This document shows positions 21,681-52,437 of a DNA stretch of 64,000 nucleotides, piece after piece. Every line of letters starts with the position of its first letter. Position 1 is the first letter of the stretch. The notes beneath the pieces were generated by a model. That model had not been told where the DNA came from and ran no database searches. It saw only the letters and a program-made list of their open reading frames with translations. The DNA is from Nitrospirota bacterium (lineage in GTDB: Bacteria > Nitrospirota > Thermodesulfovibrionia > Thermodesulfovibrionales > Dissulfurispiraceae): contig CAWBMP010000003.1 of assembly GCA_963790025.1 (NCBI GenBank), positions 128,001 through 192,000 on the forward strand. Reading direction: 5' to 3'. A program made the translations under genes and the position numbers.

Positions 21681-21689
21681 TCTTATTGC

Positions 21690-29158: not shown

Positions 29159-29170
29159 AAAGTTTACTTT

Positions 29171-29186
29171 AGCAATTTTGATACCA
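29171..29186 (-). promoter_or_regulatory. sigma54 (-24/-12) promoter of the pilY1 operon
   Basis: Minus strand TGGTATCAAAATTGCT vs consensus TGGCACGNNNNTTGCW; GG-N10-GC spacing is exact. Confidence 0.8.
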
Positions 29187-29250
29187 TAAAGTAAAAATAC
29201 TGTTTTTTCAGCTAAATTCAGATTAATGCGATGATAATAAGGCAATAATT

Positions 29251-35707: not shown

Positions 35708-35789
35708 ATATTGGAAACCGTCTTTTTTGGTTTTGATTATAACACAACAAGTAAGAGACCGGCGCAAATAGAATTGTCAACCCCGCGAG

Positions 35790-37713: not shown

Positions 37714-39654
37714 TCATCCCTCAAAAAGCACTTTACCCATGTCCCTGGTATCATAGCCGCCCATAGACTCGACAAGTCCCCTGAATTCGTCATCCTCCCG
37801 TATTATTTGCAGCACTATGCGGACCATTTCAGTCTCTATAAACTCACGCGGAATTGCAAGATCATAACGTTCGCTGGCAACCGGGATAAAATCGAGATCG
37901 AGCGCCCTTGCGGACGAGTAAATGGCAAGCCCCGTATCGGCCAGCCCCGTAAGCACAGCCGATGCAATCGCCATATGCGTGTATTCGTCCCTGTCGTAAC
38001 CTTTAATCATAGAGGGGCTGATGCCTTTGTCTCTAAGATATTTATCCAGCAGCAACCTTGTGCCCGAACCGGACTGCCTGTTGATAAAGAGCACATCATC
38101 CCTCAGGAGGTCTTCAAATCCGCCTATGTTTTTTGGATTACCTCTTTTTACAATAAGTCCCTGCTGCCGGTATACAAGATTCACCAGCAATACTTTACGG
38201 TCCGGCAAAAACCGTTTTATGAAGGGAACATTATATTCTCCTGAGTGTTCATCGAGGAGATGTGTTCCGGCGAAATGCGCTTCTCCCCTTTTCAGCGCCA
38301 TCAATCCCCCCATCGACCCCACATGGGCGGAAGACAGTGAGTAATCCTGGTAATTCTTTTTTATACTATTTGCCAATACATCAAGCGCATTGTCGTGGCT
38401 GCCGATACAAACAATAGTATTTTTTACCTCGTCTTTCTTTCTCAACAGTTCAACCGTCACTTCACTGCCCGCGCTCAACCCCTCTGAACCTGCCGGTATT
38501 CTCAATATCCCGTCGGCCCTCACCAGCGACATAAGCAATCCCGCTCCCCTGCCGACAGGAGTTGCAATATGTTTGTCACCTACAAGCCCCACTTTAACGC
38601 GGATAAACTCATCGATGCCCACTGATGAAGCTAGCTGCCTTGAAATAACTGCTTGTATCCTCTCGCCTGGCCCTGCACTGATGCCTGATAGCCGTGCAAT
38701 GACGGGCTTCACGAAAAGTTGAAAAGTAATATAGGCAGATACTGGATACCCCGGTATGCCGAACACCGGCTTCTTGTTGATAAAACCGATTATAATGGGT
38801 TTCCCGGGCTTGATTGCCGCACCGTTGACCAGTACCTCCCCAAGGGACTGTATCGCTGCCAGCGTGTAATCTTCAGAACCTCTTCCTGATCCCGCGTTGA
38901 TCAGAACAATATCGGATAACAGTGACGCATCATAAAGCGCTTTCTTAATTGCCTCGATATCATCTTTAATGACAGGGACCCTGATGGCTTCAGCATTTAA
39001 CTCCCTGGCAAGGCCCTGGAGCAGTACAGAATTATATTCGATGATCTCAGGAGGAACGGGCGGGCGGTCTCTCACCCTTTCAGGTTCAATGATTTCCGTG
39101 CCTGTAGGAATAACAGCCAGTTTGGGTTTTCTCCTGACTTTTATTTCAAGATGCCCGCTCGCAAGCATTGCTCCTATGTCGATCGGTCTTATTAAATGGT
39201 TTTCAGGGATTATTAACTCGGTAGCGACAATATCTTCTCCGATTGTCCGCACATTATGGTAGGGAGGCACCGGCTGGTAAATTTCAATAAATTCCGACTT
39301 CTCTCTTCTGACTATGTTCACATCCTCTATCATTATCACCGCGTTGAATCCTTCCGGCATGGGATCGCCGGTGTCAACATACAAAGCAGTATGCCCCAGC
39401 TCCAATAGAAGCGGTGTTGTCTCACCTGATGCGAAAGTATCGGCAAAACGCACTGCATAGCCGTCCATGGCAGCGGAATGATAAAAGGGCGACGAATACT
39501 TTGCAAAAACAGGCTGTGCAGAAGTCCTGCCCCGCGCTTCGTTAACACTGACCATCTCGGCATCCAGAGCATGCAATCCAATTTCGTCAATATGTTTGAA
39601 CAGAAGTTCAAGTGTCTTTTCGAGAGAAGGCGTATCGAGAAAGACCTGTTTCAT
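37714..39654 (-). CDS. moeA: Molybdopterin molybdo/tungstotransferase MoeA fused to a PBP (LysR-substrate-binding-like) domain
   Basis: 'AAMDGYAV', 'VDTGDPMP', 'IKPGKP', 'PGYPVS'; C-terminal 'GSHD..VGSMGGL..NRQSGSGTR'. Confidence 0.9.
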   Translation of the reverse strand: MKQVFLDTPSLEKTLELLFKHIDEIGLHALDAEMVSVNEARGRTSAQPVFAKYSSPFYHSAAMDGYAVRFADTFASGETTPLLLELGHTALYVDTGDPMPEGFNAVIMIEDVNIVRREKSEFIEIYQPVPPYHNVRTIGEDIVATELIIPENHLIRPIDIGAMLASGHLEIKVRRKPKLAVIPTGTEIIEPERVRDRPPVPPEIIEYNSVLLQGLARELNAEAIRVPVIKDDIEAIKKALYDASLLSDIVLINAGSGRGSEDYTLAAIQSLGEVLVNGAAIKPGKPIIIGFINKKPVFGIPGYPVSAYITFQLFVKPVIARLSGISAGPGERIQAVISRQLASSVGIDEFIRVKVGLVGDKHIATPVGRGAGLLMSLVRADGILRIPAGSEGLSAGSEVTVELLRKKDEVKNTIVCIGSHDNALDVLANSIKKNYQDYSLSSAHVGSMGGLMALKRGEAHFAGTHLLDEHSGEYNVPFIKRFLPDRKVLLVNLVYRQQGLIVKRGNPKNIGGFEDLLRDDVLFINRQSGSGTRLLLDKYLRDKGISPSMIKGYDRDEYTHMAIASAVLTGLADTGLAIYSSARALDLDFIPVASERYDLAIPREFIETEMVRIVLQIIREDDEFRGLVESMGGYDTRDMGKVLFEG

Positions 39655-39771: not shown

Positions 39772-40392
39772 TTATGGTGAGTAATCTTCGATTTTGATAT
39801 TATTAATGTAATCAACCCGAAACCCTGAATTGCTGCATTTGATGATGTTCAGGCAGCCATAATCCTGGTTTATCTTGAACAGATCACGCAGTGAGATCCC
39901 CAGCACATGACACAGGATCAGCCGGTTGACACCGGCATGGCCGACAATGAGAATATTTTCCTCTGCTGGTCCCAGGATGTCATGAAAAGCTGTAATCACG
40001 CGCCTGCCGCACTCGGCAAAGCTCTCGCCACCTGTAATGCGATAATTGAAAATGTCTTCGCCGCGTCTGCTGAACTCTTCCGGTAGACGCTGTGCGATAT
40101 CGGAAAATGTGAAGCCTTCCCACTCGCCAAGACTTATTTCCCTCAGGTCTTTTCGCTCTATAATTTCGATATGCCTGTCAACGGCTATTATCCCGGCCGT
40201 CTGTCTTGTGCGTGAAAGGTCGCTGCAATATATCGAGCACAGATCCTCATCGGCAAGCCTTTTTTGCAAACAGACTGATTGTCTGACACCTTCCTCATCC
40301 AACGGGAGATCGGTCTGTCCTATATATCGTTTCTCATTATCCGGCGATTGCGTTTTCCCATGCCTGACCAAAAATACCGTCAGTAACTTCAT
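39772..40392 (-). CDS. Histidine phosphatase (CobC/phosphoglycerate mutase family)
   Basis: 'VRHG', 'SDLSRTRQTA', 'GGES', 'VGHAGVNR'. Confidence 0.88.
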   Translation of the reverse strand: MKLLTVFLVRHGKTQSPDNEKRYIGQTDLPLDEEGVRQSVCLQKRLADEDLCSIYCSDLSRTRQTAGIIAVDRHIEIIERKDLREISLGEWEGFTFSDIAQRLPEEFSRRGEDIFNYRITGGESFAECGRRVITAFHDILGPAEENILIVGHAGVNRLILCHVLGISLRDLFKINQDYGCLNIIKCSNSGFRVDYINNIKIEDYSP

Positions 40393-40396
40393 CTGT

Positions 40397-41746
40397 TCAA
40401 TTCGACTCCGTTATATATCTTTTCCCTGCCGGAGGCGGCAAAGTGCCCTCGCATCGCTCAGTATTGAGGACCACTTTCAACCTGCCGCTGCGCCTTGCCT
40501 CGCATATTGCCGGACTTGTATTCAGTCCCTTGGAAAGCGCACGTTTGACAGCCTGATCAGATCCACTAGCCATCAAAGCCGTAATGATCAGCTTTGTTGC
40601 TCGTCGTGCATTGTCTACCTGGGCCGTAAAGTTGATGACTCCTGGTACCTCAAACAAACCTTCATCCAGTTCGGGCATGTCAAAATAGCGCTTCCCATCT
40701 ATCAAAATGGGGCCTTTTTTTCTTCCGGCAATCTTGTCCAGGCGTCTAAGTATGCTGCCGCATTCGCATGGCCCCGGGAGAAAACGGGAAATATCACCGG
40801 TGCGGTAACGGATGAGGGGCATACCCTGCTGGGTCAAAGTTGTGAAGACGACCTCGCCTTGTTTTCCTTCGGACAGGGGGCCACCGGCATCGTCGACAAT
40901 TTCAAAATATAAATCCGCCTCTCGCAGGTGATATCCGTCATGAGCCTCGCACTCCACTCCGCCACCCAGGCCCATTTCGGTCATGCCGTAATGTTCAAAG
41001 ACACGGCAGTCCCATAGCCGCCGGAGTTCCTTTATAATGACCCCGGGAACATTGTCAGTGCTTAATAGTACACTCTTCAAGCGAAACTTGATGCCCACAG
41101 CATCTGCATATCGAGCAAGCGCGAGTACCTGCACCGGTATCCCGACTAGGGAATTAATAGTCTCCCGACCCATAATTGTCAGTGTGTCCTGAATATTGCG
41201 AACAACGCCATGAGGCACCGGCGTGACGCCTGAACGCTTCAGGGCCGATGCAAGCAAATCACCGACGCTCCCGGCGCGCTCACCCGGCAGCAGTATCAGT
41301 ACCCTGTCACCCTTTTCGACAAGGGTCGACATCCCCTGTTGAAAGAAATCGATCGTCAATTCCTGGTCGGAACGCGTGAAGTACAGGCGTTTGGGGTTGC
41401 CTGTTGTGCCGGATGTGTCCAATGTAACTACCCGGCCGATATCATCCTGCGAAACACAAAGGAAGCGGACAGAGTGTTCCCTTATATCTTCGGCGGTGGT
41501 GAATGGAAAACGGCCCAAATCAGCAAGACTGCTAAGCTCCAAGTCAGCGCCTTTCAACAGGTCCCTGTAAAAAGGGCTTTGAACGGATGCCATGCGTATC
41601 GTCTCCCACAGTTTTTGCAGTTGGTGCGATTGGATTTGCTCCCGGCTCAAGGCATGCCTGTCTGCACCTATCTTGCGGGCTATCCAGGCTTCCAGAGGTG
41701 TCTTTGGGACACATGTCATACTCATATCACAAACAGACCTTTGCAC
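40397..41746 (-). CDS. AMP-forming CoA ligase-like protein (PaaK-like, DVU_1553-type)
   Basis: 'TSGTTGNPKR', 'HYGMTE', 'PLIRYRTGD', 'CECG'. Confidence 0.85.
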   Translation of the reverse strand: MQRSVCDMSMTCVPKTPLEAWIARKIGADRHALSREQIQSHQLQKLWETIRMASVQSPFYRDLLKGADLELSSLADLGRFPFTTAEDIREHSVRFLCVSQDDIGRVVTLDTSGTTGNPKRLYFTRSDQELTIDFFQQGMSTLVEKGDRVLILLPGERAGSVGDLLASALKRSGVTPVPHGVVRNIQDTLTIMGRETINSLVGIPVQVLALARYADAVGIKFRLKSVLLSTDNVPGVIIKELRRLWDCRVFEHYGMTEMGLGGGVECEAHDGYHLREADLYFEIVDDAGGPLSEGKQGEVVFTTLTQQGMPLIRYRTGDISRFLPGPCECGSILRRLDKIAGRKKGPILIDGKRYFDMPELDEGLFEVPGVINFTAQVDNARRATKLIITALMASGSDQAVKRALSKGLNTSPAICEARRSGRLKVVLNTERCEGTLPPPAGKRYITESN

Positions 41747-43112
41747 GATATAGCGGCTTGCCTTGCATTGCAGTCAGATTGTATGCGCAAAAAGGGATGA
41801 TCCTGTTATCCGGGCTGACCACATGGATAAAACACTCCCGCAGGCGCTCGAGGTCTAAATTCCAGGCATCCTGGAAAGCCATGCCCGATACGCATAATGA
41901 ATACATGTCGACGCGCTCCAAAAAGTCATCCAGGCTGTCGACTTTCATGAATCTCCCGTGGTCCATCGTCCCGTCTCCACCTGCTATAACCTTATTGTAC
42001 CGGCTTGAGGCCCATCGCCTGGCAACGAAAAGTTGTGCCTTTTTGGCCCCATCTGCCGCAGCTTGCGGCTGACAGCAGCCAACATGTCTTTCCTTCTTCA
42101 ACGACCTTAACTCCCCGTTCTCCATAAGTACAAAGCTCCCGCTAAAGGAGCAATAGGCGTTCTCAGCTGCCGGAGGATGGAAATCGTTAACCTTCATCCT
42201 GCCATGTGTTTGGAGTTCGATTTCACTGATGACCTCGGGAATCGTAATGCGGTCTGAATCGGCGGGTACTTTCGGGTATCTGCCAAAATAACTGATTGGC
42301 TGGAAATGAACTCCCTTTACCACGTGCATCCTCGCGATCGCATACTCTATAATCCTGCCGATGTCCCCGGTATTGATTCCGGGAACCAAGGTAGGCACAA
42401 GTACTACACCTAGTTGATGCGCAGCGCAATTTGAAATAGCTGCATCCTTTACGTCAAGGAGGGCCCTGCCGCGTATTTTCTTATATATAACGTCGGCAGT
42501 ACCGTCGAACTGGAGGAAGACGCATCCAAGTCCGGCCTCTTTGAGACTTCTCACATAACCCGAATCCTCGGACAGACGGAGGCCGTTTGTATTGAGCTGA
42601 AAAAAACTGAAACCCAGAGACCTTCCCACGGCTATTATTTCCGGCAGGTCGTCCCGCAGAGTCGGCTCACCGCCTGACAGCTGGATGTTATAAGGCCCCC
42701 CGCTGTCCAGTAGCATCCGGTACCAACTTTCGATTGTCCTCACATCCGGATCGTTGTCTTCACTTCCGGCTGAGGCAAAACAGACGGGGCAGGTCAAATT
42801 GCATCGTTGAGTAATCTCGATGAGGACGCAACAAGTGTGCTGGCGATGGTCAGGGCACAGGCCGCAGTCAAAAGGGCACCCGTGTTGTACTTTCGTCGCA
42901 CATACTGGAGGCTGGGACGGTGGTTTGGATACGGACCAGGATTTGTAAGAAGGTTGTCCGCGCCAGATGATTGACATGAAGCTGCCATGGTCTGGACAGG
43001 ACTTATCTAAATAGACATCTTCACCTATCGCAACCCGCCTTGCTTCGATGCGTTTCAGACACGCCGGGCAGAGGCTCTCGGTTATCCCTATTACCTCCCA
43101 TTCCCTGACCAT
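41727..43112 (-). CDS. Radical SAM protein, TrsS/MJ0619(Tes)-like architecture
   Basis: N-terminal CPAC..CPDH, 'CPFDCGLCPDH', RS motif 'CNLTCPVCFA', 'SGGEP', C-terminal 'ECFIH..IPFCAYN'. Confidence 0.88.
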   Translation of the reverse strand: MVREWEVIGITESLCPACLKRIEARRVAIGEDVYLDKSCPDHGSFMSIIWRGQPSYKSWSVSKPPSQPPVCATKVQHGCPFDCGLCPDHRQHTCCVLIEITQRCNLTCPVCFASAGSEDNDPDVRTIESWYRMLLDSGGPYNIQLSGGEPTLRDDLPEIIAVGRSLGFSFFQLNTNGLRLSEDSGYVRSLKEAGLGCVFLQFDGTADVIYKKIRGRALLDVKDAAISNCAAHQLGVVLVPTLVPGINTGDIGRIIEYAIARMHVVKGVHFQPISYFGRYPKVPADSDRITIPEVISEIELQTHGRMKVNDFHPPAAENAYCSFSGSFVLMENGELRSLKKERHVGCCQPQAAADGAKKAQLFVARRWASSRYNKVIAGGDGTMDHGRFMKVDSLDDFLERVDMYSLCVSGMAFQDAWNLDLERLRECFIHVVSPDNRIIPFCAYNLTAMQGKPLYRAKVCL

Positions 43113-43114
43113 AC

Positions 43115-43741
43115 TTACAATTCCTTCTTGATACAGCGCTGATCATAGATCACACGTATTTCCGAATAGTCCTCCGGTGTATCGATGTCCAGCAATATCC
43201 CCTTGTCATCCACATCGACCTCGCGGGCTTCTGTCTCATGCCGGGCCAATAAAGATTGCAGACCATCGGGTCCTCTCCAGGACAGTATCTCATGGAACAG
43301 GGTTGAGGGTATCAAAGGCGGGTGCCCGTGTCGGTCCATAAAAGTAGGATAAAATACATAAGCCCCCAACTCTCTATAGGCCCTAATGATTTTTTTCACG
43401 GTAAGACTTTTTACCAGAGGCATGTCAACCGGCAATAAAAAGACGCCTTTAACTCCCGGCCCAAGTGAGCGCAATCCGGCGACAACTGACGAGAACATCC
43501 CTTCGTTATACTTTTCGTTGAATACCCAGCGGACATGCAAGGGGTCCAGCACCGGTTTCAAGTCATCGGCCCGATGTCCAAGGACAACCGTTATATCGTT
43601 TATACCTGCCTGCCGGAAGATCCCGATAACAATTTCAATTACAGTTAAGTTACCCAGCGGCAACAAAGGCTTGAAATCAGACATCCGCGATGAATAGCCG
43701 GCAGCTAATACTATGGCGCTTAAATCCTCTTCGACAACCAT
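43115..43741 (-). CDS. MocA-like molybdenum cofactor nucleotidyl(cytidylyl)transferase
   Basis: 'VLAAGYSSRM..FKPLL', 'GMFSS', 'PVDMP', 'GHPP', 'DIDTPEDY'. Confidence 0.85.
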   Translation of the reverse strand: MVVEEDLSAIVLAAGYSSRMSDFKPLLPLGNLTVIEIVIGIFRQAGINDITVVLGHRADDLKPVLDPLHVRWVFNEKYNEGMFSSVVAGLRSLGPGVKGVFLLPVDMPLVKSLTVKKIIRAYRELGAYVFYPTFMDRHGHPPLIPSTLFHEILSWRGPDGLQSLLARHETEAREVDVDDKGILLDIDTPEDYSEIRVIYDQRCIKKEL

Positions 43742-44781
43742 TTCTCTTTTTCAGCCCTCACCTTGATCAGTTCACCGACAATGCTCACGGCAAGTTCCTC
43801 GGGAGTCTCAGCGCCTATATCAGTGCCTATCGGGCAATAGACACGGTCAAAATCCTGCCTGCTGAACCCCTCACCGGCAAGGGCTTCGAATATCTTGTCC
43901 CTTTTTCTCCTGCTTCCGATCATACCGATATATCCTGCCTTAGTCTCCAATGCCCGGGCAAGGACCGTCTTGTCATGAAGGTGTCCCCTAGTAACAATGA
44001 CTATGTAACTGTCCTCGTCAATCGGCAGTTCTGGAAGTCTGTCGAAAGACTCCAGCAAGATGACTTCTGACGGCACCGGAAACCTTTCACGGTTTGCGTA
44101 TTCGGAGCGATCATCCATAACAACCGTCCTGAAACCGACACTCTCGCTCAGGGGCGCGACTTTTTGTGATACATGGCCCGCACCTAAGATGTAGACCGTG
44201 CCGGCATTGCGAAGCGGCTCTACCAGAACTTTTTGATTGCCGAGTGCCTGAGTGTGGATAAAAATACCGTCCGGTTCTGCAATAAGTCTGGAGAGCAATT
44301 GGGGATCGCCGTCGAATCCACCGATGAGTCTTCCGTCCTGCTTTAAAAGACATTGCCGGATATCAGGATTTTGCTGGCTGCCCAGCTTTGTAAGCAGCCA
44401 TCCCTTTCCCTTCCGCTCCAGTATTGCCGCAGCCTCTCTGTAAATAAGCGCGCTGGTCTCATCAGAGCCGTCGATGAAGTCCAGCAACACCTGGCCTTGC
44501 CCTCCGCACATCATATCCATGCCCGAAACATCTTCGCCCGTAAGTTTAAAGGACAATATAACCGGCTGTCCGGAAATCAATACCTTTCTCGCAACCTCAA
44601 TGGCATCGGCCTCCAGACGTCCGCCACCGATAGTACCCCTGATTTCACCATTCATCCTGACCAGCATCCTGGCGCCCGAAGTGCGGGGAGCAGAACCGGA
44701 TTGATCGAAAATGACGGCAACCACAAAACTTTCCCCTTTGTCAAGAAGGTCCGCCATTTCCCGGAATAATTTTTTCATCAA
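43720..44781 (-). CDS. XdhC/CoxF family molybdoenzyme maturation factor
   Basis: 'GSAPRTSGA', 'GTIGGG', 'MMCGG', 'GAGHV', 'YIGMIGSRRK', 'AETPEELAVSI'. Confidence 0.92.
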   Translation of the reverse strand: MMKKLFREMADLLDKGESFVVAVIFDQSGSAPRTSGARMLVRMNGEIRGTIGGGRLEADAIEVARKVLISGQPVILSFKLTGEDVSGMDMMCGGQGQVLLDFIDGSDETSALIYREAAAILERKGKGWLLTKLGSQQNPDIRQCLLKQDGRLIGGFDGDPQLLSRLIAEPDGIFIHTQALGNQKVLVEPLRNAGTVYILGAGHVSQKVAPLSESVGFRTVVMDDRSEYANRERFPVPSEVILLESFDRLPELPIDEDSYIVIVTRGHLHDKTVLARALETKAGYIGMIGSRRKRDKIFEALAGEGFSRQDFDRVYCPIGTDIGAETPEELAVSIVGELIKVRAEKEKWLSKRI

Positions 44782-44802
44782 GATTCCACCGATAGCTTTA
44801 TT

Positions 44803-45252
44803 TCAGCGGGCCTGACCGAAGTCATAATTGTTGGCCCCCAGTATTTCTTTCACCTTTTGGACCGTTGCGAGCAGTATCTCAGGACAGCGCGACAGCCGGT
44901 TGCGGGGGTCGTCCTGAAGGATATCGGAGCAGTTGGTCCCTCCGTACCTGGATTGGTATTCCTTCTCAAACCATTCCACAAGCTCGCTCATCATGAGGTA
45001 AAGACGGCTGTCCGCTTCTTCATCCGGCTTTCCCTTTCCAGCATAGAGTCCGATCAGACAGGCGCCGCCGGTAAGAGTTCCGCATATCTTTCCGCAAAAT
45101 CCGACGCCGCCAAGCAGCCCCGACATGGCCCTTACCAGGTCCGGGTTGCTCTTCCCCTGAGCTTCCAGGGCCATAATGATCATGATCTGGCTGCAATAGA
45201 AGCCCTGCTGAGACAGCTCCAACATACGGATGAAATCGTCATTCATTTGCAC
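44803..45252 (-). CDS. C-GCAxxG-C-C family (putative redox/metal-binding) protein
   Basis: 'FYCSQ', 'GG...ICGTLTGG', 'TNC', 'RCPE'. Confidence 0.85.
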   Translation of the reverse strand: MQMNDDFIRMLELSQQGFYCSQIMIIMALEAQGKSNPDLVRAMSGLLGGVGFCGKICGTLTGGACLIGLYAGKGKPDEEADSRLYLMMSELVEWFEKEYQSRYGGTNCSDILQDDPRNRLSRCPEILLATVQKVKEILGANNYDFGQAR

Positions 45253-45261
45253 GTTATCCTG

Positions 45262-45909
45262 TTATGTGTCCTTTCGGGCAATAAGGAGAAAATAGCTGAG
45301 ACAAGCCTGTTTCAAGGTCTTCAGGTCCGACAGCCCTTCAAAGGAACCATGCTCCATGATCATCCGAAAAACAAATTCCTTCAGCACATGACAATGGTCT
45401 TCCCAAAGCTCAATAGTAAAGCCCCTGCGGGCCAGCTTGCCTGTCAGACTCTCCTCTGTCATTATACCCGACATACAAAACGGAAGCTGCATGTTATGAA
45501 TTAAGTTTATCGCACAGGTGTCACGTGAGTAAACATCGGTCACGACAAGTTTGCCGCCCTGACGCAATGCACGGTTGAATTCGGCCAGGACACGGTCCCT
45601 GTCAGGCAGCACAGAGAGTGTGCATTCTGCCAGAATGCCGTCTAATGAGGCCGAAGCAAACGGCAGTTTTTCAGCTACACACCGGACAAGCGGCAACTCA
45701 GGGTTGCGCCGAATGCCGCGCTTCAATGGAACCTCGGCACAATCGATGCCGATCGCATCAAGGCACGATTCCTGCCGAAGAAATTCTACGCTTTCTCCAG
45801 CGCCACACCCTATATCAGCTACCACGGCACCAGCTTTGAATGAGCAATACCTGATTGCCCTAGCCGTCAACGCAAGCCCGCCAGGACGCATAATATCGGT
45901 GGTAATCAT
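45262..45909 (-). CDS. Class I SAM-dependent methyltransferase (DVU_1556-type, ArsM-related fold)
   Basis: 'RPGGLALT', 'DIGCGAG', 'AECTLS', 'PFCMSG'. Confidence 0.85.
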   Translation of the reverse strand: MITTDIMRPGGLALTARAIRYCSFKAGAVVADIGCGAGESVEFLRQESCLDAIGIDCAEVPLKRGIRRNPELPLVRCVAEKLPFASASLDGILAECTLSVLPDRDRVLAEFNRALRQGGKLVVTDVYSRDTCAINLIHNMQLPFCMSGIMTEESLTGKLARRGFTIELWEDHCHVLKEFVFRMIMEHGSFEGLSDLKTLKQACLSYFLLIARKDT

Positions 45910-46118
45910 TTGTCTTCCAGCGCCTGTTCCACTTGCAGCATCTTTCCGACAGCCAGTTCCTCAGGTACAAATACAGTGCCGCAAACAGGACATATCGACA
46001 ATTCAACAGGGAATTCACTTCCAAGGTATGAAACCGTCACCTTCCCGGGCATAAGCTCCTTGCCGCACTTTAGGCAAGTCAACTCAGGTCCCGGCGAAAG
46101 GATATTATCTTCGCTCAT
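45906..46118 (-). CDS. Small CxxC...CxxC protein (DVU_1557-type)
   Basis: 'CLKCG', 'CPVCG', C-terminal 'VEQALEDK'. Confidence 0.8.
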   Translation of the reverse strand: MSEDNILSPGPELTCLKCGKELMPGKVTVSYLGSEFPVELSICPVCGTVFVPEELAVGKMLQVEQALEDK

Positions 46119-46405
46119 TTAACGATTCCCTCAATCACTTCCATCCTGTGGCTGTATGCGTTGTGAATTATAAAGCCGGAATCGTTAGGAGAATATTCCA
46201 CCCAGTAGGTCACACTTACAGGCCTGTAATGGGCGATGAAACGGCCGGTTGCAGCGTTGAGAATCTTCTCGCCCGTGCTCTCCGCGTGGCGTATTACCTT
46301 TTGTATGTCCCCGACCAGAATCATCCTTGACTCCAGCAAATCCGACACCTCAGGAGATATATAAAGTTCTATGGATTTCTCTTCTTCAGACACCCTTTCC
46401 CCCAC
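46115..46405 (-). CDS. Probable detached C-terminal domain of the upstream flavo-Fe-S oxidoreductase (frameshift), or a separately translated partner
   Basis: Overlaps the upstream ORF; adding one G to the G5 run at 46399-46403 fuses them as ...LRELWGERVSEEEK... Confidence 0.6.
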   Translation of the reverse strand: MGERVSEEEKSIELYISPEVSDLLESRMILVGDIQKVIRHAESTGEKILNAATGRFIAHYRPVSVTYWVEYSPNDSGFIIHNAYSHRMEVIEGIVK

Positions 46406-48465
46406 AGTTCCCTCAAGAGTTGAATTTTCAGTTTGGCGCGATTTTCATGGCGCTGCGAAAAGCCCGGGCCTTTTCTTGCAGCGGGGTCGTCCCGGTTGAC
46501 CGGATCAGGGGCCCAGATCAGATCGAGGATGTGAAGGGCACGCTTACCCCTGGACGAAAAATTGTCCCGGCACATGGCGCAATACGTTATATAGTCGCGG
46601 TCGCTTTCCCCTATTCTTCGTTTGACCACCTTATCTGCAACCAGAGGATTGGCAAAAGACATAAGGCCCCCATAACCGCAACAAGTGGTCAAATGCCGAT
46701 TGTGGCCCAACTCCTCCACCCGAACCCCGAGTTTTCCAAGGATGCAGCGTATTTCCCCCTGTATCGCTTCATCGTATCTGGTAGAACAGGTGTCATGAAC
46801 AGCAACCTCCTGAGGCGGTGTTTCAGGTCCTGACCGTGGCAGTTTGCTCACTGCCAGGATAGACCAGAGAGTTTCCACCTCGGCATCCTTCAAGCGGTCT
46901 CTGAACACCCGGTGGCAGCTCGAACAAGCGGTGATTATGCGTGGAGTTCCCAGCTGCCGCCAAGTTTCGACAAAGGCGCCCATAGTCCGACCGAACAAGT
47001 CCTCTTCACCGGCCCATTCTGCGGGAGCACCGCAGCATCCTAGGACAAGCCCTACTCCACCCCTGATATTTTGCCGCAGATATTCATATACCTTTACCAC
47101 CTGCTGAGGCGATGATGCACTCAACTGGCACCCCGGGAAGAAGACGGCACTGCTGGATGAGAAACCCGGTTGATGTCGCGCAAGGGTAAAGGCCCCGCTA
47201 TTGCTGAAGGCCATGTCCCTCAGCGCAAAATCATGGGCCGAGGCAGGCATTTTCCCTTTCTGTACCATGCTCTGCCTGGCGTCCAGGCAGAGCATGGCCA
47301 TATTCAGGGACACCGGACATACGGCCTCGCAGAGACTGCAGAGTGCGCATGTATTTACCATGCGATTGGCGTGGTGCATTCCCATGATGATGGAGTCGTT
47401 ATTGTAGATTTCTCTCACATACCTCTTGGGATATGAGCCATAATGGGCGAGATACTCGCACACTTTCACACATTCGAGACACTGGCAGTTCAGGCAGCGA
47501 CGCGCCTCGGCTTCCGCTTCTTCGCGGCAGTAGCCCTGCATGCTGTTTTGCATCGGAACTGAGGTAAGCGGTCCGGTCCCCTTAGTATCGGTGTACAACT
47601 GCGTAACGTAGGGGCCCTCGAAAGCGCGGCCCGCGGTCAGGGAAACCCCCTGAAGAAGGCGATCAATCGAAACGGCTGCCAGTCTTCCATCGGAGATCGA
47701 CGTAATCGGTGAGAATTTTAAGTCGCCATAGCGCTGACTACCACCGGAGAATACCTTGCTATTGCTGGTAGCATAAGAGATTGGAGCTATTATGATACGG
47801 CCATCCGGCCCGAGATCAAGATTCAGGCGCAGACCATGAACCGCAACAGGTCCCGGTCCAATATAAACCGCGTCGAATTCGGCAACGATGGAATCAAACG
47901 ATATCCCTTTTCCGGATTCGTTGCTCACTTGGCTGTCCAAGTGAATGACGACCTCCAGGCCTTCGAAAACAACCAGATCCGAGTCTATCAACTGCTGCGG
48001 CAGGGTTTGTCCGTGAATGTTCCTTAAGCATCCGCCAAGTCGGCTGCCCGACTCGAAGATTTCGACCTGATATCCTTTGGAAGCAAGATCGAAGGCAGCT
48101 GTCAAGCCGCTGAGTCCGGCGCCGACTACAGCAACCTTCTTGTCCTTTTTTTGCAAATGTCTGATCTTCGCGGAAGTCCTCTCTCCATAGTCAATGCAGG
48201 CCCTCTCAAGGGCATTGATCATAATGGCTTCTCCCGCCTCGTTTCGCTTGCAGGCAACCTGACAGGGATGGTCGCATATCCTGCTTATGATGCCGGGAAA
48301 GGGCACAGTCTTACTAAAGATAGCAAAACCTGCGGAGTAGTCTCCCTTGCGTATACATTCGATCATGCCCCTGGCATCTACGTGTGCCGGGCATGTGGCA
48401 GTGCATTCAGGCGGCCACTCCTGAATGCACTGGGACTCGCGTTCTCTCGCGCGCTTATGGTCCAT
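46369..48465 (-). CDS. Pyridine nucleotide-disulfide oxidoreductase / 4Fe-4S dicluster / CCG-domain protein
   Basis: GltD-like 'CTATCP..RICDHPCQVAC', GAGLSG, 'CLNCQCLECVKVC', 'CALCSLCEAVCP', two CCG motifs. Confidence 0.85.
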   Translation of the reverse strand: MDHKRARERESQCIQEWPPECTATCPAHVDARGMIECIRKGDYSAGFAIFSKTVPFPGIISRICDHPCQVACKRNEAGEAIMINALERACIDYGERTSAKIRHLQKKDKKVAVVGAGLSGLTAAFDLASKGYQVEIFESGSRLGGCLRNIHGQTLPQQLIDSDLVVFEGLEVVIHLDSQVSNESGKGISFDSIVAEFDAVYIGPGPVAVHGLRLNLDLGPDGRIIIAPISYATSNSKVFSGGSQRYGDLKFSPITSISDGRLAAVSIDRLLQGVSLTAGRAFEGPYVTQLYTDTKGTGPLTSVPMQNSMQGYCREEAEAEARRCLNCQCLECVKVCEYLAHYGSYPKRYVREIYNNDSIIMGMHHANRMVNTCALCSLCEAVCPVSLNMAMLCLDARQSMVQKGKMPASAHDFALRDMAFSNSGAFTLARHQPGFSSSSAVFFPGCQLSASSPQQVVKVYEYLRQNIRGGVGLVLGCCGAPAEWAGEEDLFGRTMGAFVETWRQLGTPRIITACSSCHRVFRDRLKDAEVETLWSILAVSKLPRSGPETPPQEVAVHDTCSTRYDEAIQGEIRCILGKLGVRVEELGHNRHLTTCCGYGGLMSFANPLVADKVVKRRIGESDRDYITYCAMCRDNFSSRGKRALHILDLIWAPDPVNRDDPAARKGPGFSQRHENRAKLKIQLLRELWGKGCLKKRNP

Positions 48466-48477
48466 CTTGATCTCAGC

Positions 48478-51213
48478 TTAATTCTTCTTGCCTTTGGCAT
48501 CCAAAGCAGCCTTGATCACCTCCGGCCTTGCCGGCACACTGGTTATTCGGGCACCGCAGGCGTTATAAATGGCGTTCAGTATCGCCGGATGAGGGGCTGT
48601 CAACGGCGCCTCTCCCACACCGGCTGCGCCGTATGGTCCCAGTGGCCTCGACGTAACATTGTAAATGATCTGAAAATCATCCGGCACATCTTTAGCGTAG
48701 GGCAAGCCGCAGCCCATCAGGGTCGTGTGTTTCTTCAGGTCCTCGAAGTCTTCGCTGAGGGCCAGGCCGATGCCCTGTGCTATGCCTCCATAGATCTGTC
48801 CGTCAACCGTGGCCTTATTGATGACAGTGCCGATATCGGTGACAGTCGTGAACTTGACGACTGTGGCCTTGCCGGTCTTCATATCTACTTCGACTTCCGG
48901 CATAAACAATTCATACATGTAGACCGCGAACGGACTTCCCTGACCTGTTTCACTGCTGCAGGCCGTGCATGCGGCCGCTGCCCATTTGCCGTTGTATCGA
49001 AGCGGAATCTTTTCCGCAACCATTTCGTCATAGGTGCGGTACATTCCGTCGCCTTTGCGCATCGCATTAAGCAGCATGTCACAGGAAACCTTTAACGAAT
49101 TGCCGGTTATAACGGTGCTGCGGCTTCCGCCCGCAGGGCCGCTGTTTGGGCAAGTAGCGGTATCGTTCATGCGAAGCCTGATCTGCCCAGGGCTGAGGCC
49201 GAGAGGCTTGAGGGTCTCGTGGACAAAGGTCAGTGATCCGATGTCCGCGCCTTGACCGTGATCTTCCCAAGTGTTCAGTACAAGCACTCCGTCCGGAGTA
49301 AGTTCTACAGCAGCCTCCGAACCATCCGGACCGTCGAGGCCACATCCGTAGATGCCGAGGGAGATGCCGACTCCGCGTTTCTTGTCAGAGGTGGAGAGTT
49401 CCATGCATCTCTTCTTGGCCTCTTTATACAGTGGACGCAGTTTGTCGAACATAGCTTCAAGACAATAAACATCAGGCTGACAACCGGTAGGAGTGGTGTC
49501 TCCAGGGCGATAAATATTCTTGTAGCGAAGTTCGAATGGATCTATCCCCATCTTTTCGGCAAGTTCGTCCATCAATATCTCTGAGGCCAGGAATGATTGC
49601 GGAGAACCGTAGGCCCTGAACGCCGATCCCCAGGCATGGTTGGTGCAGACCGTGCGGCCCTTGCCGCGGATGTTGGGGATGTTATATCCTGCGCCAATGA
49701 ACTGCGCCTGGCGAACCGTCAGCAGGTCTCCGAACTCGGAGTAAGGACCATGGTCTATAGTCCAGTCGCTCTCCATGGCAATCAACTTCCCGTCCTTGTC
49801 CGCGCCGAACTTAAGTTTGACGAATCCCGGCGAGCGCTTGCCGGTATAGGTGATGTGCTGAAACATCGAATAGGTCAGTGAGACCGGCTTGCCGGTCGCC
49901 ATACAGGCGACGCCGAGAAGTGCCTCCATCGTCGGGCTGAATTTGTAGCCGAATGTGCCGCCGGTCGGGTTTTGGATAATTCGCAGTTTTTCGGGCTCAA
50001 TGCCCAGTCCGGGACATATCATTGCATGGTGGAGAAATATGCCGATGCTCTTGGACTGGATGGTCAGACGGCCCTCTTCGTCGAAATAGGCGCAACCGCA
50101 ATCCGGTTCCATGGTGAGGTGGGGCTGGCGGCTGCAATAGAATTCGTCTTCGACAACATAAGCAGCCTTCAACATCAGAGGCTTCGTATCGTCGCCTTTT
50201 ACTATCCCCTGCTCGTAGTAAACATTGGGAGTGCCGGGATGTATCTCCATGGCATCCGGGGCCATGGCCGCCGGGGCACTCATATATGCCGGAAGGGCCT
50301 CAAGATCGACCTTCACCTTTTTAGCAGCAGCGTCGGCATTCTCCTGAGTGTCGGCGCAGACAATGGCTATTGCATCTCCGTACTGGAAGACCTTGTCCTT
50401 GCACAGGATAGGACGGTCCCAGCCGTCGCCCTTGTTGGACGGGAAGGTAATCAGACCAGTAATAGCGTTCTTGCCTTTCACATCTTTGTGCGTGACTATC
50501 TTGTATACGCCGGGCATGTTTTCGGCCTCCGACGTGTCTATGCCTTTGATGTTCGCATGGGAAACTTCTGCCTGTACGAGGGCCAGTCGCAGAGTATCGG
50601 GAGGCATCTGCAGCGCCACATCGTCGCCGTAATCCCATGTGCCTGTAACTTTTGCAATTGCCGACGGACGCTCATAGGTCGAGCCCATGATGCTTCCATC
50701 CTTGCCGGGCTTGAATAGGAGGTCCTCCTTCTTCAACTCACCTCTCAGCACCCTGGCTGCGTCCATGACTGCATCTACGAGCGGCTTATAGCCCGTGCAG
50801 CGACAGGCATTCCTGTGATTCTGGAACCAGTCGCGCACATCTCCCCGCGTCGGGCTGAGGTTTGTATCCAGCAGGGCCTTGGCAGACATTATGAAGCCGG
50901 GGCTGCAGAAACCACACTGGGCCCCGCCGTGGGCCATCCAGGCCACCTGCAGCGGATGCAGGTTGTCCTCTGTTCCAAGTCCATCTATAGTCAATATCTC
51001 AGCAAAATCCTGCACTGTTTTCATCTTGACGACACACGACCTTACGAGCTTTCCGTCCAGGATGATCGAGCAACATCCGCACTGGCCATGACCGCAGCCT
51101 ATCTTACAGCCTGTCAAAAGCATCTGCTGCCGCAGTACGTTGGCCAGAGATTTCTCCGGATCGACTACCAAAGACCTGGCTACACCGTTGACCTTCAGGA
51201 TCTTTCTCAGCAT
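48478..51213 (-). CDS. mop: Molybdopterin-dependent aldehyde oxidoreductase (xanthine oxidase family, Mop/AOR type)
   Basis: Two 2Fe-2S sites ('GCGHGQCGCC', 'QCGFCSPG', 'CRCTGY'), 'GGTFGYK', 'AFRAYG', 'GVGE'; no FAD domain; SD GAGGTG. Confidence 0.93.
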   Translation of the reverse strand: MLRKILKVNGVARSLVVDPEKSLANVLRQQMLLTGCKIGCGHGQCGCCSIILDGKLVRSCVVKMKTVQDFAEILTIDGLGTEDNLHPLQVAWMAHGGAQCGFCSPGFIMSAKALLDTNLSPTRGDVRDWFQNHRNACRCTGYKPLVDAVMDAARVLRGELKKEDLLFKPGKDGSIMGSTYERPSAIAKVTGTWDYGDDVALQMPPDTLRLALVQAEVSHANIKGIDTSEAENMPGVYKIVTHKDVKGKNAITGLITFPSNKGDGWDRPILCKDKVFQYGDAIAIVCADTQENADAAAKKVKVDLEALPAYMSAPAAMAPDAMEIHPGTPNVYYEQGIVKGDDTKPLMLKAAYVVEDEFYCSRQPHLTMEPDCGCAYFDEEGRLTIQSKSIGIFLHHAMICPGLGIEPEKLRIIQNPTGGTFGYKFSPTMEALLGVACMATGKPVSLTYSMFQHITYTGKRSPGFVKLKFGADKDGKLIAMESDWTIDHGPYSEFGDLLTVRQAQFIGAGYNIPNIRGKGRTVCTNHAWGSAFRAYGSPQSFLASEILMDELAEKMGIDPFELRYKNIYRPGDTTPTGCQPDVYCLEAMFDKLRPLYKEAKKRCMELSTSDKKRGVGISLGIYGCGLDGPDGSEAAVELTPDGVLVLNTWEDHGQGADIGSLTFVHETLKPLGLSPGQIRLRMNDTATCPNSGPAGGSRSTVITGNSLKVSCDMLLNAMRKGDGMYRTYDEMVAEKIPLRYNGKWAAAACTACSSETGQGSPFAVYMYELFMPEVEVDMKTGKATVVKFTTVTDIGTVINKATVDGQIYGGIAQGIGLALSEDFEDLKKHTTLMGCGLPYAKDVPDDFQIIYNVTSRPLGPYGAAGVGEAPLTAPHPAILNAIYNACGARITSVPARPEVIKAALDAKGKKN

Positions 51214-51255
51214 GTTTTTCACCTCATTATCAAAATAACAGCGGCTTATGCCGTT

Positions 51256-52281
51256 TCAATTGCCTTTACCGAAAGCGCAGTTGGGATACCGGCAAGGATC
51301 GCAGATAGTGCAAAGTCCTCCATGCGCCAGACGCGTAATGTCCTTGCGGGTAATCTCTTCGCCGGCCAAAATGCGGGGGGCTATCAGATCGAAAATCGTT
51401 GTCTTGTGATACATTACACAACCCGGCAGCCCCAGCACCGGAATATTCCCTATGTATGCCAGCATGAACATAGACCCCGGAAGCACAGGGGCACCGTAAG
51501 CGACAATGCGGCCGCAGGCTGCCCTTATCCCCGCCGGAGTGACGTCATCCGGATCGACCGACATGCCGCCGGTTGTTACGACCATTTCGGCGCCTTCCTG
51601 GATCAGGGTCTGAATTGCCTGCGCAATCATGTCTACGCTGTCGTCGACAAAAATACGCCGGAGGACCGTGCTTCCCAAGTCAGTCATCTTTGTTTCTATG
51701 ACCGGCCCGAACTGGTCCTTTATACGTCCATGGTAAACCTCGCTGCCGGTTGTAACGATGCCGACTTTCAAGGACCGAAGGGGTTTAATCTCAAAGACGG
51801 GATAGCATTTCCGCCCTATGGCTTCCACGCAGCTTATCTTTTCGGTATCTATCACAAGCGGAACTACCCGGCAGCCTGCAACGACCTTTCCGGCTGTTAC
51901 GATCTGGTTTGAGTGTATCGAAGCCAATGCGATCTGTTCTATATCGTTCATCTCTTCCAGCGCACCCGTGTTGATCTTCAAAAGACCCTTTGTTTCGGCC
52001 TTCAACTCAACCTTGCCCTCGACAGGATCGGTTAAGGTAATACCGGGGCCGGCCGCGGCCTTTGCCAGCCTTATAGCCGCGTCATTTTCATGCAGAGTAT
52101 TCTCATCCAGTTCCCAGACGTAAAGATGCTCCTTGCCGAGGTCCAACAGCTTTGGGATGTCTTCACGCTGTATAATATGCCCCTTCTTGAATGCCCTTCC
52201 CTTGAATTTGTTATGAACGATTTCCGTTATATCGTGGCATAATATAGTACCTTCCGCTTCATGCACCGATATTGTTTTCAT
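51256..52281 (-). CDS. Molybdopterin-binding (MoeA-like) protein
   Basis: 'GTILCHDIT', 'TTGSEV', 'TGGMSVDPDD', 'PVLPGSM', 'GGLCTICDPCRYPNCAFGK'. Confidence 0.85.
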   Translation of the reverse strand: MKTISVHEAEGTILCHDITEIVHNKFKGRAFKKGHIIQREDIPKLLDLGKEHLYVWELDENTLHENDAAIRLAKAAAGPGITLTDPVEGKVELKAETKGLLKINTGALEEMNDIEQIALASIHSNQIVTAGKVVAGCRVVPLVIDTEKISCVEAIGRKCYPVFEIKPLRSLKVGIVTTGSEVYHGRIKDQFGPVIETKMTDLGSTVLRRIFVDDSVDMIAQAIQTLIQEGAEMVVTTGGMSVDPDDVTPAGIRAACGRIVAYGAPVLPGSMFMLAYIGNIPVLGLPGCVMYHKTTIFDLIAPRILAGEEITRKDITRLAHGGLCTICDPCRYPNCAFGKGN

Positions 52282-52437
52282 CCAATCTCTCCTTTATATA
52301 GCATATTGCTAATCATATCACCTCATCAGGGATAGTGCAACCCCGGTTCGGATATACCAAATTAAATGGTGATCTCTGCAGCAGGCCGCGGATGTTCTGG
52401 CAGGCAGCCGGAAATATAAAGTGATATAATTGATCTC

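Follow-up and report, generated by a model that had tools for sequence, protein, structure and literature searches.

A conserved gene cassette joining an aldehyde oxidoreductase to the radical SAM protein TrsS in a Nitrospirota bacterium, with a possible role in cofactor formation

The subject of this analysis is a gene cluster at positions 39772-52281 of a 64,000-nucleotide stretch of contig CAWBMP010000003.1 (the whole stretch is called the window below) from a Nitrospirota bacterium (assembly GCA_963790025.1). The cluster is a complete copy of a conserved cassette of the Desulfovibrio vulgaris DVU_1551-1559 type, in which an aldehyde oxidoreductase (AOR) of the MOP type is joined to the radical S-adenosylmethionine (SAM) protein TrsS, and which we call the AOR-TrsS cassette. 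We propose, with moderate confidence, that the AOR and its flavo-FeS-CCG partner F (the AOR-F module) depend on a cofactor or prosthetic group containing sulfur or selenium, which the pathway built around TrsS makes or installs. Catabolism of the AOR product is a less likely purpose.

The genes, labeled in transcription order G, A, F, z, M, C, X, N, R (TrsS), L and H, were read from position 52281 downward using an open reading frame (ORF) listing and family scans. They are given below with the family models concerned, and the last line is the downstream neighbor of the cluster.

51256-52281, minus strand: G, MoCF_biosynth-domain protein of 341 aa, the first gene of the cluster (Pfam PF00994)
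48478-51222, minus strand: A, MOP-type AOR (NF045668)
46115-48465, minus strand, as 46369-48465 plus 46115-46405: F, flavo-FeS-CCG protein, frameshifted (NF045663)
45906-46118, minus strand: z, four-Cys protein of the DVU_1557 family (DUF7479), 70 aa (NF045645)
45262-45909, minus strand: M, class I SAM methyltransferase of the DVU_1556 family (NF045667)
44803-45252, minus strand: C, C-GCAxxG-C-C protein of the DVU_1555 family (NF045669)
43720-44781, minus strand: X, XdhC_rel_AOR (NF045664)
43115-43741, minus strand: N, MocA-like nucleoside triphosphate (NTP) transferase (NF045665, TIGR03310)
41727-43112, minus strand: R, radical SAM protein TrsS, 461 aa (NF045646)
40397-41746, minus strand: L, PaaK-like adenylate-forming ligase of the DVU_1553 family (NF045666)
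39772-40392, minus strand: H, histidine phosphatase, branch 1 (TIGR03162)
37714-39654, minus strand: MoeA fused to a PBP-like domain (PRK14498 type; NF011068, 729 bits), 117 nt downstream of the cluster

The eleven genes are co-directional on the minus strand and separated by -37 to +33 nt, and the GC content of the cluster is 0.526 versus 0.458 for the remaining window (maximum 0.466 among 55 other 12.5-kb segments). The original prediction of ten or eleven tightly packed, GC-richer minus-strand genes is thereby borne out, and its likeness to the D. vulgaris DVU_155x neighborhood fits the NCBIfam family names. The gene identities it listed were also upheld by the family scans, with the refinements that its "CxxC mini-protein" is the 70-aa DVU_1557-family protein z and that twelve ORFs make up the eleven genes, a 96-aa ORF being the frameshifted C-terminus of F rather than a gene of its own.

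An alignment of TrsS proteins was scanned against the contigs of one genome per species, giving 567 relatives, and the best 80 loci were fetched. Synteny was counted by tblastn with the window proteins in the 45 of those 80 loci that have full 10-kb flanks (full loci). F and z were present in all 45, A, C and L in 44, N in 42, X in 40, M in 38 and H in 37, and A, X, N, H and M were found all together in 32. The genes lie nearly always on one strand in the usual order A-F-z-M-C-X-N-R-L-H, an arrangement far beyond chance. The source lineages are Nitrospirota, Negativicutes (Sporomusa, Pelosinus), Acidobacteriota, Syntrophobacteraceae, Geobacteraceae, Anaeromyxobacter, Rhodocyclales, Spirochaetota, Clostridia and others. 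The claim that the genes beyond molybdenum cofactor (Moco) maturation form a dedicated, co-inherited unit holds, given that each is present in 37-45 of the 45 full loci and that natural fusions join them. We find it scarcely credible that an AOR/Moco operon and a separate, unrelated TrsS operon simply lie side by side. Two AOR-less loci (below) have F-z-C-R-L without AOR, X, N and H, as two operons would allow, but the genes share a single strand with overlapping or near-touching boundaries, their order is repeated in many phyla with the 32 loci complete, and fusions of N to TrsS and of N to H span the supposed boundary.

Those natural fusions show that R, L, M, N and H belong to one pathway. 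Among the 80 loci, N (with or without its HD domain) formed a single ORF with TrsS in five (L024, L026, L038, L066 and L067), HD-bearing N formed one with H in four (L009, L032, L049 and L060), and F was fused to z in one (L038). A TrsS search of 1.84 billion representative proteins gave 627 matches at E<=1e-30; among the best 150 of these, 34 had a length of at least 565 aa, of which 20 were scanned for additional domains. TrsS was combined with an AMP-binding ligase in seven of the 20 long representatives (P0128 scored 457 bits on the DVU_1553 model), with NTP_transf_3 in four, two of them having HD, with a DVU_1556-type class I methyltransferase in four, in either order (P0125 and P0142 being over the DVU_1556 cut-off), and with DUF5714, an MbdU-like "metal-binding" domain, in two, while three had no extra Pfam domain. 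The original prediction had divided the genes into those for Moco and those surplus to it, a division that breaks down at the MocA-like N, fused as it is to TrsS (5/80 loci and 4/20 long representatives) and to the phosphatase (4/80 loci). What looked like TrsS-ligase fusions in L065 and L078 arose as artefacts from long alternative-frame ORFs where the DNA is GC-rich, and neither was counted. Note that L038, from a metagenome-assembled genome (MAG) labeled Patescibacteria group, combines an F-z fusion of 845 aa with a 666-aa fusion of a short N to TrsS; either the lineage is fusion-prone or the assembly is missing stop codons.

TrsS matched NF045646 at 682.2 bits (cut-off 490) over model positions 3-441 of 441. 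Its score on the Tes model NF045702 was 361.7 bits, under the cut-off of 450, and it aligned with the lipid synthase GDGT-MAS (7TOL) at 304 bits over residues 11-315 and 399-447. TrsS is the closest bacterial cousin of GDGT-MAS, and at each of the four metal sites of that enzyme every ligand has an invariant TrsS residue aligned with it. The rubredoxin-type site CX2CX20CX2H (C15/C18/C39/H42), the N-terminal auxiliary cluster CX3CX2C plus His (C79/C83/C86/H89) and the radical SAM motif CX3CX2C (C104/C108/C111) are each invariant in 14/14 sequences, as is M411 of the C-terminal auxiliary cluster, the labile Met in GDGT-MAS, which stands there with C427/C442. By analogy, the chemistry of TrsS is probably similar to that of GDGT-MAS, the ligands and carbon-sulfur cluster intermediate of which are described in passages of PMC9433317. 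The same passages treat MJ0619 as the lipid synthase GDGT-MAS and its older pterin-methylase assignment as not corroborated. We therefore rejected the label "HMPTM" or 7,8-dihydro-6-hydroxymethylpterin dimethyltransferase (PF23545, JGI names), of which MJ0619 was the founding member (re-assigned in those passages of PMC9433317): because the pterin role of MJ0619 is uncorroborated, such names on TrsS homologues are no evidence of pterin chemistry. The lead toward pterin modification, part of the first of three roles suggested in the original prediction (a modified pterin cofactor or a new electron carrier), is weak for the same reason; none of the three is either proven or excluded.

The TrsS of the window is the Cys form, for which the family name leaves room, as its 461-aa ORF covers the whole model with no in-frame stop. 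No selenocysteine-type UGA was found in TrsS among the 80 loci, and truncated representatives gave no consistent position either. The one TGA, in a Nitrospirota MAG (L001:1088-2443), lies in frame where every aligned TrsS homologue has an invariant Gly, and this is more likely an error or mutation than selenocysteine.

This relationship raises the reading that TrsS is a bacterial synthase of tetraether or membrane-spanning lipids like Tes and GDGT-MAS, with its neighbors incidental or lipid-related. The conservation of all four metal sites at 304 bits speaks for it, as do the 456 bacterial Tes homologues, many from Acidobacteria, put forward as synthases of brGDGTs (branched glycerol dialkyl glycerol tetraethers) in passages of Zeng et al. 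(PMC8941075); many TrsS loci are likewise from Acidobacteriota. We nevertheless consider a lipid synthase very improbable. TrsS falls short of the Tes model (361.7 bits, cut-off 450) and scores 682 bits on its own, and its residues 316-398 do not align with 7TOL, where GDGT-MAS has its middle, lipid-binding region. That stretch of TrsS contains some of six TrsS-specific invariant Cys residues (C94, C95, C197, C229, C321 and C346). Moreover, TrsS has no strongly hydrophobic segment (maximal 19-aa Kyte-Doolittle mean of 1.42), glycerol-lipid genes are not recurrent in the loci, and the constant partners are a molybdenum enzyme and Moco genes.

The molybdenum enzyme of the cassette, A, matched NF045668 at 1662.4 bits (cut-off 1100), its residues 6-907 falling on model positions 2-904 of 905. 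Pfam assigned it, in one chain, two [2Fe-2S] domains, an a/b hammerhead and two Mo-cofactor binding domains (Fer2, Fer2_2, Ald_Xan_dh_C, MoCoBD_1 and MoCoBD_2), and the same scan found no FAD_binding_5 or other FAD domain. The protein aligned end to end with D. gigas MOP (1SIJ/1VLB, 1336 bits) and with 1DGJ (1327 bits), and its catalytic Glu aligned gap-free with chain position 869 of 1SIJ, presumably the residue numbered Glu869 in D. gigas MOP. A is predicted to be an aldehyde-oxidizing enzyme with molybdenum bound as molybdopterin cytosine dinucleotide (Mo-MCD). Its median identity to the window protein across loci is 74%, versus 41-64% for the other regular cassette genes.

F is represented in the window by two ORFs in different frames, of 698 aa and 96 aa, that fall on positions 2-669 and 673-758 of the 759 positions of NF045663. 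The two parts lie in one contiguous frame in 69/71 loci, with a single ORF in 71 ORFs, and DNA alignment with Nitrospirota orthologues (3/3) placed a one-base gap of the window gene in a G run near 46399-46403. The split could be a real frameshift or a homopolymer sequencing error; for the 96-aa piece there is a separate GTG start with GAGGG upstream. The invariant columns of 31 orthologues give F a GltD/NfnB-like FeS domain at the N-terminus and a flavin (FAD) motif consisting of a single GxGxxG...FAGG pair only ~120 residues apart. As this spacing is too short to accommodate an NAD(P)H domain, we infer that F has none. F, with four cubane-cluster motifs in all, also has a 2x[4Fe-4S] ferredoxin domain, two complete CCG motifs of the HdrB/HdrD type (C444...C475 C476 G477...C512 C515 and C558...C593 C594...C627 C630 in L072 numbering; Pfam CCG score of 51.3 bits versus 20.6) and a conserved C-terminal domain of ~90 aa. 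Its similarity to Protein Data Bank (PDB) sequences is confined to residues 1-210.

The start of z and the end of F share 4 nt. This protein (98.9 bits on NF045645, cut-off 60) has four invariant Cys residues in rubredoxin- or zinc-ribbon-like CxxC...CPxCG knuckles and a strikingly constant tail: 49/49 sequences finish at the same Lys, and the last four residues are LEDK in 48/49. A profile of 29 z sequences matched only generic zinc-finger knuckles in the PDB (best E=0.0026), and a search of longer proteins for fused z gave two matches, neither with a partner domain. C (183 bits on NF045669, cut-off 103) has four invariant Cys residues (C20, C57, C108 and C123). Its family profile matched the chain of the split-Soret cytochrome c 1H21 (E=1.3e-5), which we take to have an Fe-S centre in its N-terminal part, and C is probably an Fe-S or redox protein. 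A single-sequence search of the PDB with C returned nothing, and the ESM Atlas gave no usable match.

Among the Moco genes, X scored 412.9 bits on NF045664 (cut-off 350) with both the XdhC_CoxI and XdhC_C domains of Pfam and is a predicted XdhC-family Moco chaperone or AOR maturation factor. G, the ATG of which is preceded by a ribosome-binding site, has a MoCF_biosynth domain (molybdopterin (MPT)-binding, MoeA/MogA-like) at residues 174-304 (PF00994, 82 bits); its N-terminal half had no family match, and its PDB sequence matches are confined to MogA/MoeA domains. A gene for G was found in 15 loci (median identity of 68% to the window) and precedes A in 9 of the 34 related loci having room upstream of the AOR gene. 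Cysteine desulfurases occur in 34/80 loci, in two distinct settings. In 17 loci an SclA/TIGR01977-like enzyme is found together with a Cys-rich ORF of ~100 aa immediately upstream of TrsS (17/17), and in the other 17 a NifS-type enzyme lies directly upstream of XdhC (14 loci), directly downstream of it (2) or elsewhere (1). Partnership of XdhC with a desulfurase is known and fits the NifS beside XdhC. A His-rich ORF of ~100 aa follows H in 27/80 loci, and a sigma-54 activator stands ahead of the cassette in 16/80.

The transferase N matched NF045665 (the DVU_1551 family) over model positions 2-199 of 359 at 262.7 bits, under the cut-off of 315, and MocA (TIGR03310) at 145 bits, under 186.45, MocA still being the closest characterized family. 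The usual orthologue of ~373-400 aa consists of NTP_transf_3 plus a C-terminal HD phosphohydrolase domain (the HD-bearing L014 orthologue scored 443.7 bits on NF045665). This HD tail is present in 64/80 loci; N is of the short kind in the window as well as in the related Nitrospirota. H passed the alpha-ribazole phosphatase (CobC) model TIGR03162 marginally (166.7 bits versus 162.9) with its catalytic residues R10, H11, R61, E85 and H152 invariant. Its presence in 37/45 full cassette loci and its fusion to the NTP transferase in four suggest that the name CobC is misleading and argue against a cobamide role. Automated pipelines would probably label the window phosphatase CobC.

The ligase L scored 474.4 bits on NF045666 (cut-off 300), versus 120.3 bits on PaaK TIGR02155 (under 646.3) and 135 bits against the PaaK structure 4R1L. 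It keeps the adenylation motifs, with the catalytic K442 in at least 90% of 29 sequences, and has four conserved Cys residues (C97, C266, C327 and C329). L is the starting point of the catabolic reading that the original prediction also offered, in which the acid made by the AOR would be converted by L to the acyl-AMP or acyl-CoA for radical C-H chemistry by TrsS, with M, H and N acting on later intermediates. The pieces for this are in place: TrsS and the ligase are always neighbors and are fused in 7/20 long representatives, the AOR is found in 44/45 full TrsS loci, GDGT-MAS, the nearest solved relative of TrsS, works on alkyl chains, and L retains the catalytic Lys together with the core motifs seen in acyl-CoA ligases of the PaaK type. 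We regard such a catabolic role as unlikely all the same, as no transporter or catabolic enzyme family is common to the 80 loci, thiolase, hydratase and dehydrogenase included, and the unchanged cassette is found in organisms of very different carbon metabolism. The route from aldehyde through acid to acyl-CoA uses ATP, whereas it is established biochemistry that CoA-acylating dehydrogenases need none. Furthermore, R and L are retained in loci that lack the AOR, and the accessory XdhC, NifS, NTP transferase and radical SAM proteins are of maturation or cofactor-pathway types.

Two loci without an AOR, a second copy in Sporomusa sp. KB1 (L023) and one in a Geobacteraceae MAG (L029), have kept exactly F, z, C, R and L. 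Limited as it is to two loci, this shows that the TrsS-ligase pair is bound closer to F-z-C than to the AOR. Around L029 lie a regulator of the ArsR/SmtB type, a methyltransferase resembling ArsM (193 bits on PRK11873) and an MIP (aquaporin) channel. Beside L023, a DF seleno-family domain is fused to an ArsM-like methyltransferase of the arsenosugar type (332 bits), and SaoA/SaoP-like ABC genes are present along with a rhodanese. Some details of these loci are recorded here: the full cassette of Sporomusa sp. KB1 (L016) lies about 30 kb from L023, a Rep3-type replication initiator and an SLH protein stand between the ArsM-like gene and the rhodanese of L023, and L029 (L029:11939-13312) has two TrsS paralogues, one on either side of the ligase.

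The metalloid-type surroundings of both AOR-less loci keep alive, short of proof, the last of the originally suggested roles, the handling of metalloids. In this reading the Cys-rich proteins, the ArsM-like M and TrsS would bind species of arsenic, selenium or tellurium and alkylate or methylate them, with electrons given by the AOR and F. It draws further support from M, the nearest named relatives of which are arsenite methyltransferases and which has an invariant Glu95-Cys96 pair, from the MbdU-like "metal-binding" domain fused to TrsS in 2/20 long representatives, from family names of TrsS and of the C-GCAxxG-C-C protein that include selenoprotein forms, and from the SclA-like lyase beside TrsS in 17 loci. 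On the other hand, M scored only 61.8 bits on the ArsM model PRK11873, far under the cut-off of 263, versus 218 bits on its own NF045667 (cut-off 155), and the metalloid context comes from two loci only. No ars, sel or metal-resistance genes were found in the flanks of the window, the regular cassette has no ArsR (the regulator, where seen, is the sigma-54 activator of 16/80 loci), and the scheme gives the molybdenum aldehyde oxidoreductase no role. Taken together, we judge a dedicated metalloid or chalcogen system quite unlikely.

A pathway making or installing a cofactor for the AOR-F module is favored over these readings because the enzymes are of maturation types, no transporter or catabolic enzyme is shared, and the same cassette occurs across differing metabolisms. 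It would consist of three interlocked layers: redox, Moco and TrsS pathway. In the redox layer the MOP-type Mo-MCD enzyme would turn an aldehyde into an acid, and the two electrons would leave A via its [2Fe-2S] clusters to the HdrD-like F with its cubane clusters, FAD and two CCG sites, with the rubredoxin-like z and the Fe-S-type Cys protein C as small metal/Cys partners of F. In the Moco layer X, G and N would make and insert MCD, helped by NifS beside XdhC where present. The third layer would be a biosynthetic unit of R, L, M, N (HD-bearing elsewhere) and H. L would adenylate a carboxylate, and TrsS would take an H atom from an unactivated carbon and use its C-terminal auxiliary cluster as in GDGT-MAS, through a carbon-sulfur intermediate, the outcome being sulfur or selenium insertion or carbon coupling. 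The dedicated lyase, where present, would refill sulfur or selenium, M would methylate the product, and N (with HD) and H would add a nucleotide or phosphate handle and then trim it. What the analysis shows are the gene identities, the synteny, the fusions and the conserved metal ligands and catalytic residues. We infer all chemical steps of the third layer, modeled as they are by analogy on GDGT-MAS and on sulfur insertion of the LipA/BioB type, and likewise which way the electrons flow and where the product goes. The product could be destined for F/z/C, as the minimal F-z-C-R-L core suggests, or for the Mo site, as the links to N and X suggest.

Several observations weigh against this proposal. 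The high-resolution D. gigas MOP structures, which we take to hold only MCD and two [2Fe-2S] clusters, make it unlikely that the AOR itself contains an additional or altered cofactor, since the MCD there is the standard one. M and H are each absent from 7-8 of the 45 full loci and X from five, so that the steps of all three are dispensable or supplied in trans. N may just make MCD, its closest named family being MocA, and adjacent genes can become fused without shared substrates. The search of the PDB with the z profile detected no carrier-protein family, amino-group carrier proteins of the LysW type included. The window has no desulfurase, small Cys-rich ORF, HD domain or His-rich ORF, all common elsewhere, and the frameshift in F may mean that the module is impaired in this organism. 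Finally, the survey was seeded from TrsS, and its counts apply to loci with TrsS rather than to MOP-type AOR genes as a whole.

A more specific form of the cofactor proposal, to which we give little credence, has the TrsS pathway build a novel sulfur or selenium prosthetic group for F-z-C by carrier loading, LipA-like thiolation and CCG cycling. L would load an acyl group on a carrier, for which the invariant Lys at the C-terminus of the 70-aa z is a possible site, TrsS would thiolate or selenate an unactivated carbon via its auxiliary cluster as LipA does, M, N and H would complete the group, and the HdrD-like CCG site of F would cycle it. If this were true, the 30-year-old "orphan" MOP would be half of an aldehyde:disulfide oxidoreductase with its own cofactor, and many of the "bacterial Tes homologues" behind predictions of brGDGT producers would be TrsS proteins and not lipid synthases.

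The surroundings of the cluster are housekeeping genes (formate-tetrahydrofolate (THF) ligase, GlnD, TamB, BamA, ProRS, ValRS, PurM, NadC and RACo), among which the cassette appears as an inserted GC-richer block. The nearest copies are in Nitrospirota MAGs with 89-90% AOR identity, and their flanks differ from those of the window; this difference and the GC step would fit acquisition by horizontal transfer. The downstream MoeA-PBP gene has a relative within the flank in just 4/45 full loci and is a Moco-related neighbor, not a regular cassette member. The divergent upstream neighbor (52438-53178, plus strand) encodes a CinA-N/MoCF_biosynth protein of 246 aa (130.9 bits to NF002291) and is followed by MntH. 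Proteins with MPT-binding domains around the cassette thus number three: G, MoeA-PBP and this 246-aa protein. A 201-aa minus-strand ORF at 52318-52923, which overlaps the plus-strand CinA-like gene and has no family match, was set aside as spurious, and the AIR-synthase-like gene at 56802-57836, entertained as SelD, is PurM. Rfam gave no real match, and therefore no Moco riboswitch, over 35-56 kb, and pattern scans for sigma-70 promoters, terminators and sigma-54 sites gave matches at chance level only.

Elsewhere in the window, at 20284-23826 and 23777-29245, a run of ORFs (254, 211, 397, 167 and 88 aa) had no Pfam/NCBIfam match, and the adjoining protein of 1822 aa gave only a weak PilY1 beta-propeller match. 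The segment 29320-31547 encodes a histidine kinase and a sigma-54 response regulator. The formate-THF ligase gene (536-2299) and that of the RACo-type reductive activator of corrinoid proteins (34214-35767) suggest an organism with a C1 pathway of the Wood-Ljungdahl type.

MOP was the first enzyme of the xanthine oxidase family with a solved structure. Its place is in a fixed cassette, with TrsS relatives in at least 567 species-level genomes, where it is accompanied by an HdrD-like protein and by the five enzymes of a radical SAM pathway. Were this pathway solved, a new cofactor or route of maturation could come to light, and it could become clear how anaerobes use low-potential electrons from aldehydes. 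Its solution could also correct two annotation habits, the naming of TrsS as a pterin methylase or tetraether lipid synthase, which bears on the prediction of brGDGT sources, and the naming of the cassette phosphatase as CobC.

Set against known systems, the AOR of the window is an orthologue of D. gigas MOP and D. desulfuricans MOD (1VLB/1SIJ and 1DGJ), with the same domain order and no FAD domain. The structural work on those two organisms dealt with the enzyme alone, without its operon partners or physiological electron acceptor. F has both CCG motifs of the HdrD/HdrB proteins, the ferredoxin domain and the FeS-plus-FAD start of the GltD/NfnB flavoproteins, but differs from both in its additional C-terminal domain of ~90 aa and in having, as far as can be judged from motif spacing, no room for an NAD(P)H domain. 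TrsS has in common with GDGT-MAS/Tes (MJ0619) the radical SAM core, the rubredoxin-type site, the N- and C-terminal auxiliary clusters and the Met ligand; however, its middle region differs and its partners are a molybdenum enzyme, a ligase and a methyltransferase rather than lipid genes. The pathways of LipA with LplA/LipB, of BioB with BioW/BioC and of Hcg (for the FeGP cofactor) are analogies of another kind. They join the same kinds of enzymes, namely an adenylate-forming ligase, a radical SAM protein with a sulfur auxiliary cluster, a methyltransferase, a nucleotidyl transferase and a desulfurase, but the cassette proteins are homologous to them at the superfamily level at most.

The accessory cluster of selenium-dependent molybdenum hydroxylases, reportedly described by Haft and Self in 2008, is said to comprise YgfK, YgfJ/MocA, YqeB, YqeC and an EF2568-type NifS. 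Common to it and the cassette is a xanthine-oxidase-family enzyme in the company of an FeS flavoprotein resembling GltD, a transferase resembling MocA and a protein resembling XdhC; 17 loci add a desulfurase resembling TIGR01977 (EF2568-type). That cluster has nothing corresponding to TrsS, the ligase or the methyltransferase, and the window has no YqeB, YqeC or SelD.

Nine window proteins match the NCBIfam DVU_1551-1559/TrsS set itself (NF045645, NF045646 and NF045663-NF045669), eight of them over cut-off, and in gene content and order the window agrees completely with 32 of the 45 full loci; the window departs from it in that N has no HD and is under its cut-off, F is frameshifted and there is no desulfurase. 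The cassette is therefore already curated and not a newly recognized system; the original prediction had called it the best candidate for a new system in the window. That it is recognized yet uncharacterized, as the prediction also stated, agrees with the dedicated NCBIfam models and with literature text searches (on the locus tags DVU1551-DVU1560, TrsS and the family names) that gave proteomic table rows only, without a functional study or assignment. It is catalogued but functionally unsolved, and the window is one more member. This analysis itself supplied the fusion map, the minimal core of F, z, C, R and L, both settings of the desulfurases, the domain layout of F, the invariant z tail and the mapping of GDGT-MAS metal ligands onto TrsS. 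Some of these findings may already have been published in Haft & Tolstoy 2025 (mSystems 10:e0141724), to which a row of a review table that names TrsS attributes it. Clostridium ljungdahlii offers an expression counterpart: in passages of Aklujkar et al. 2017 (PMC5640608) it has two tandem AOR-F-4Cys-CGCAxxG sets, one of them up-regulated on syngas and/or H2/CO2.

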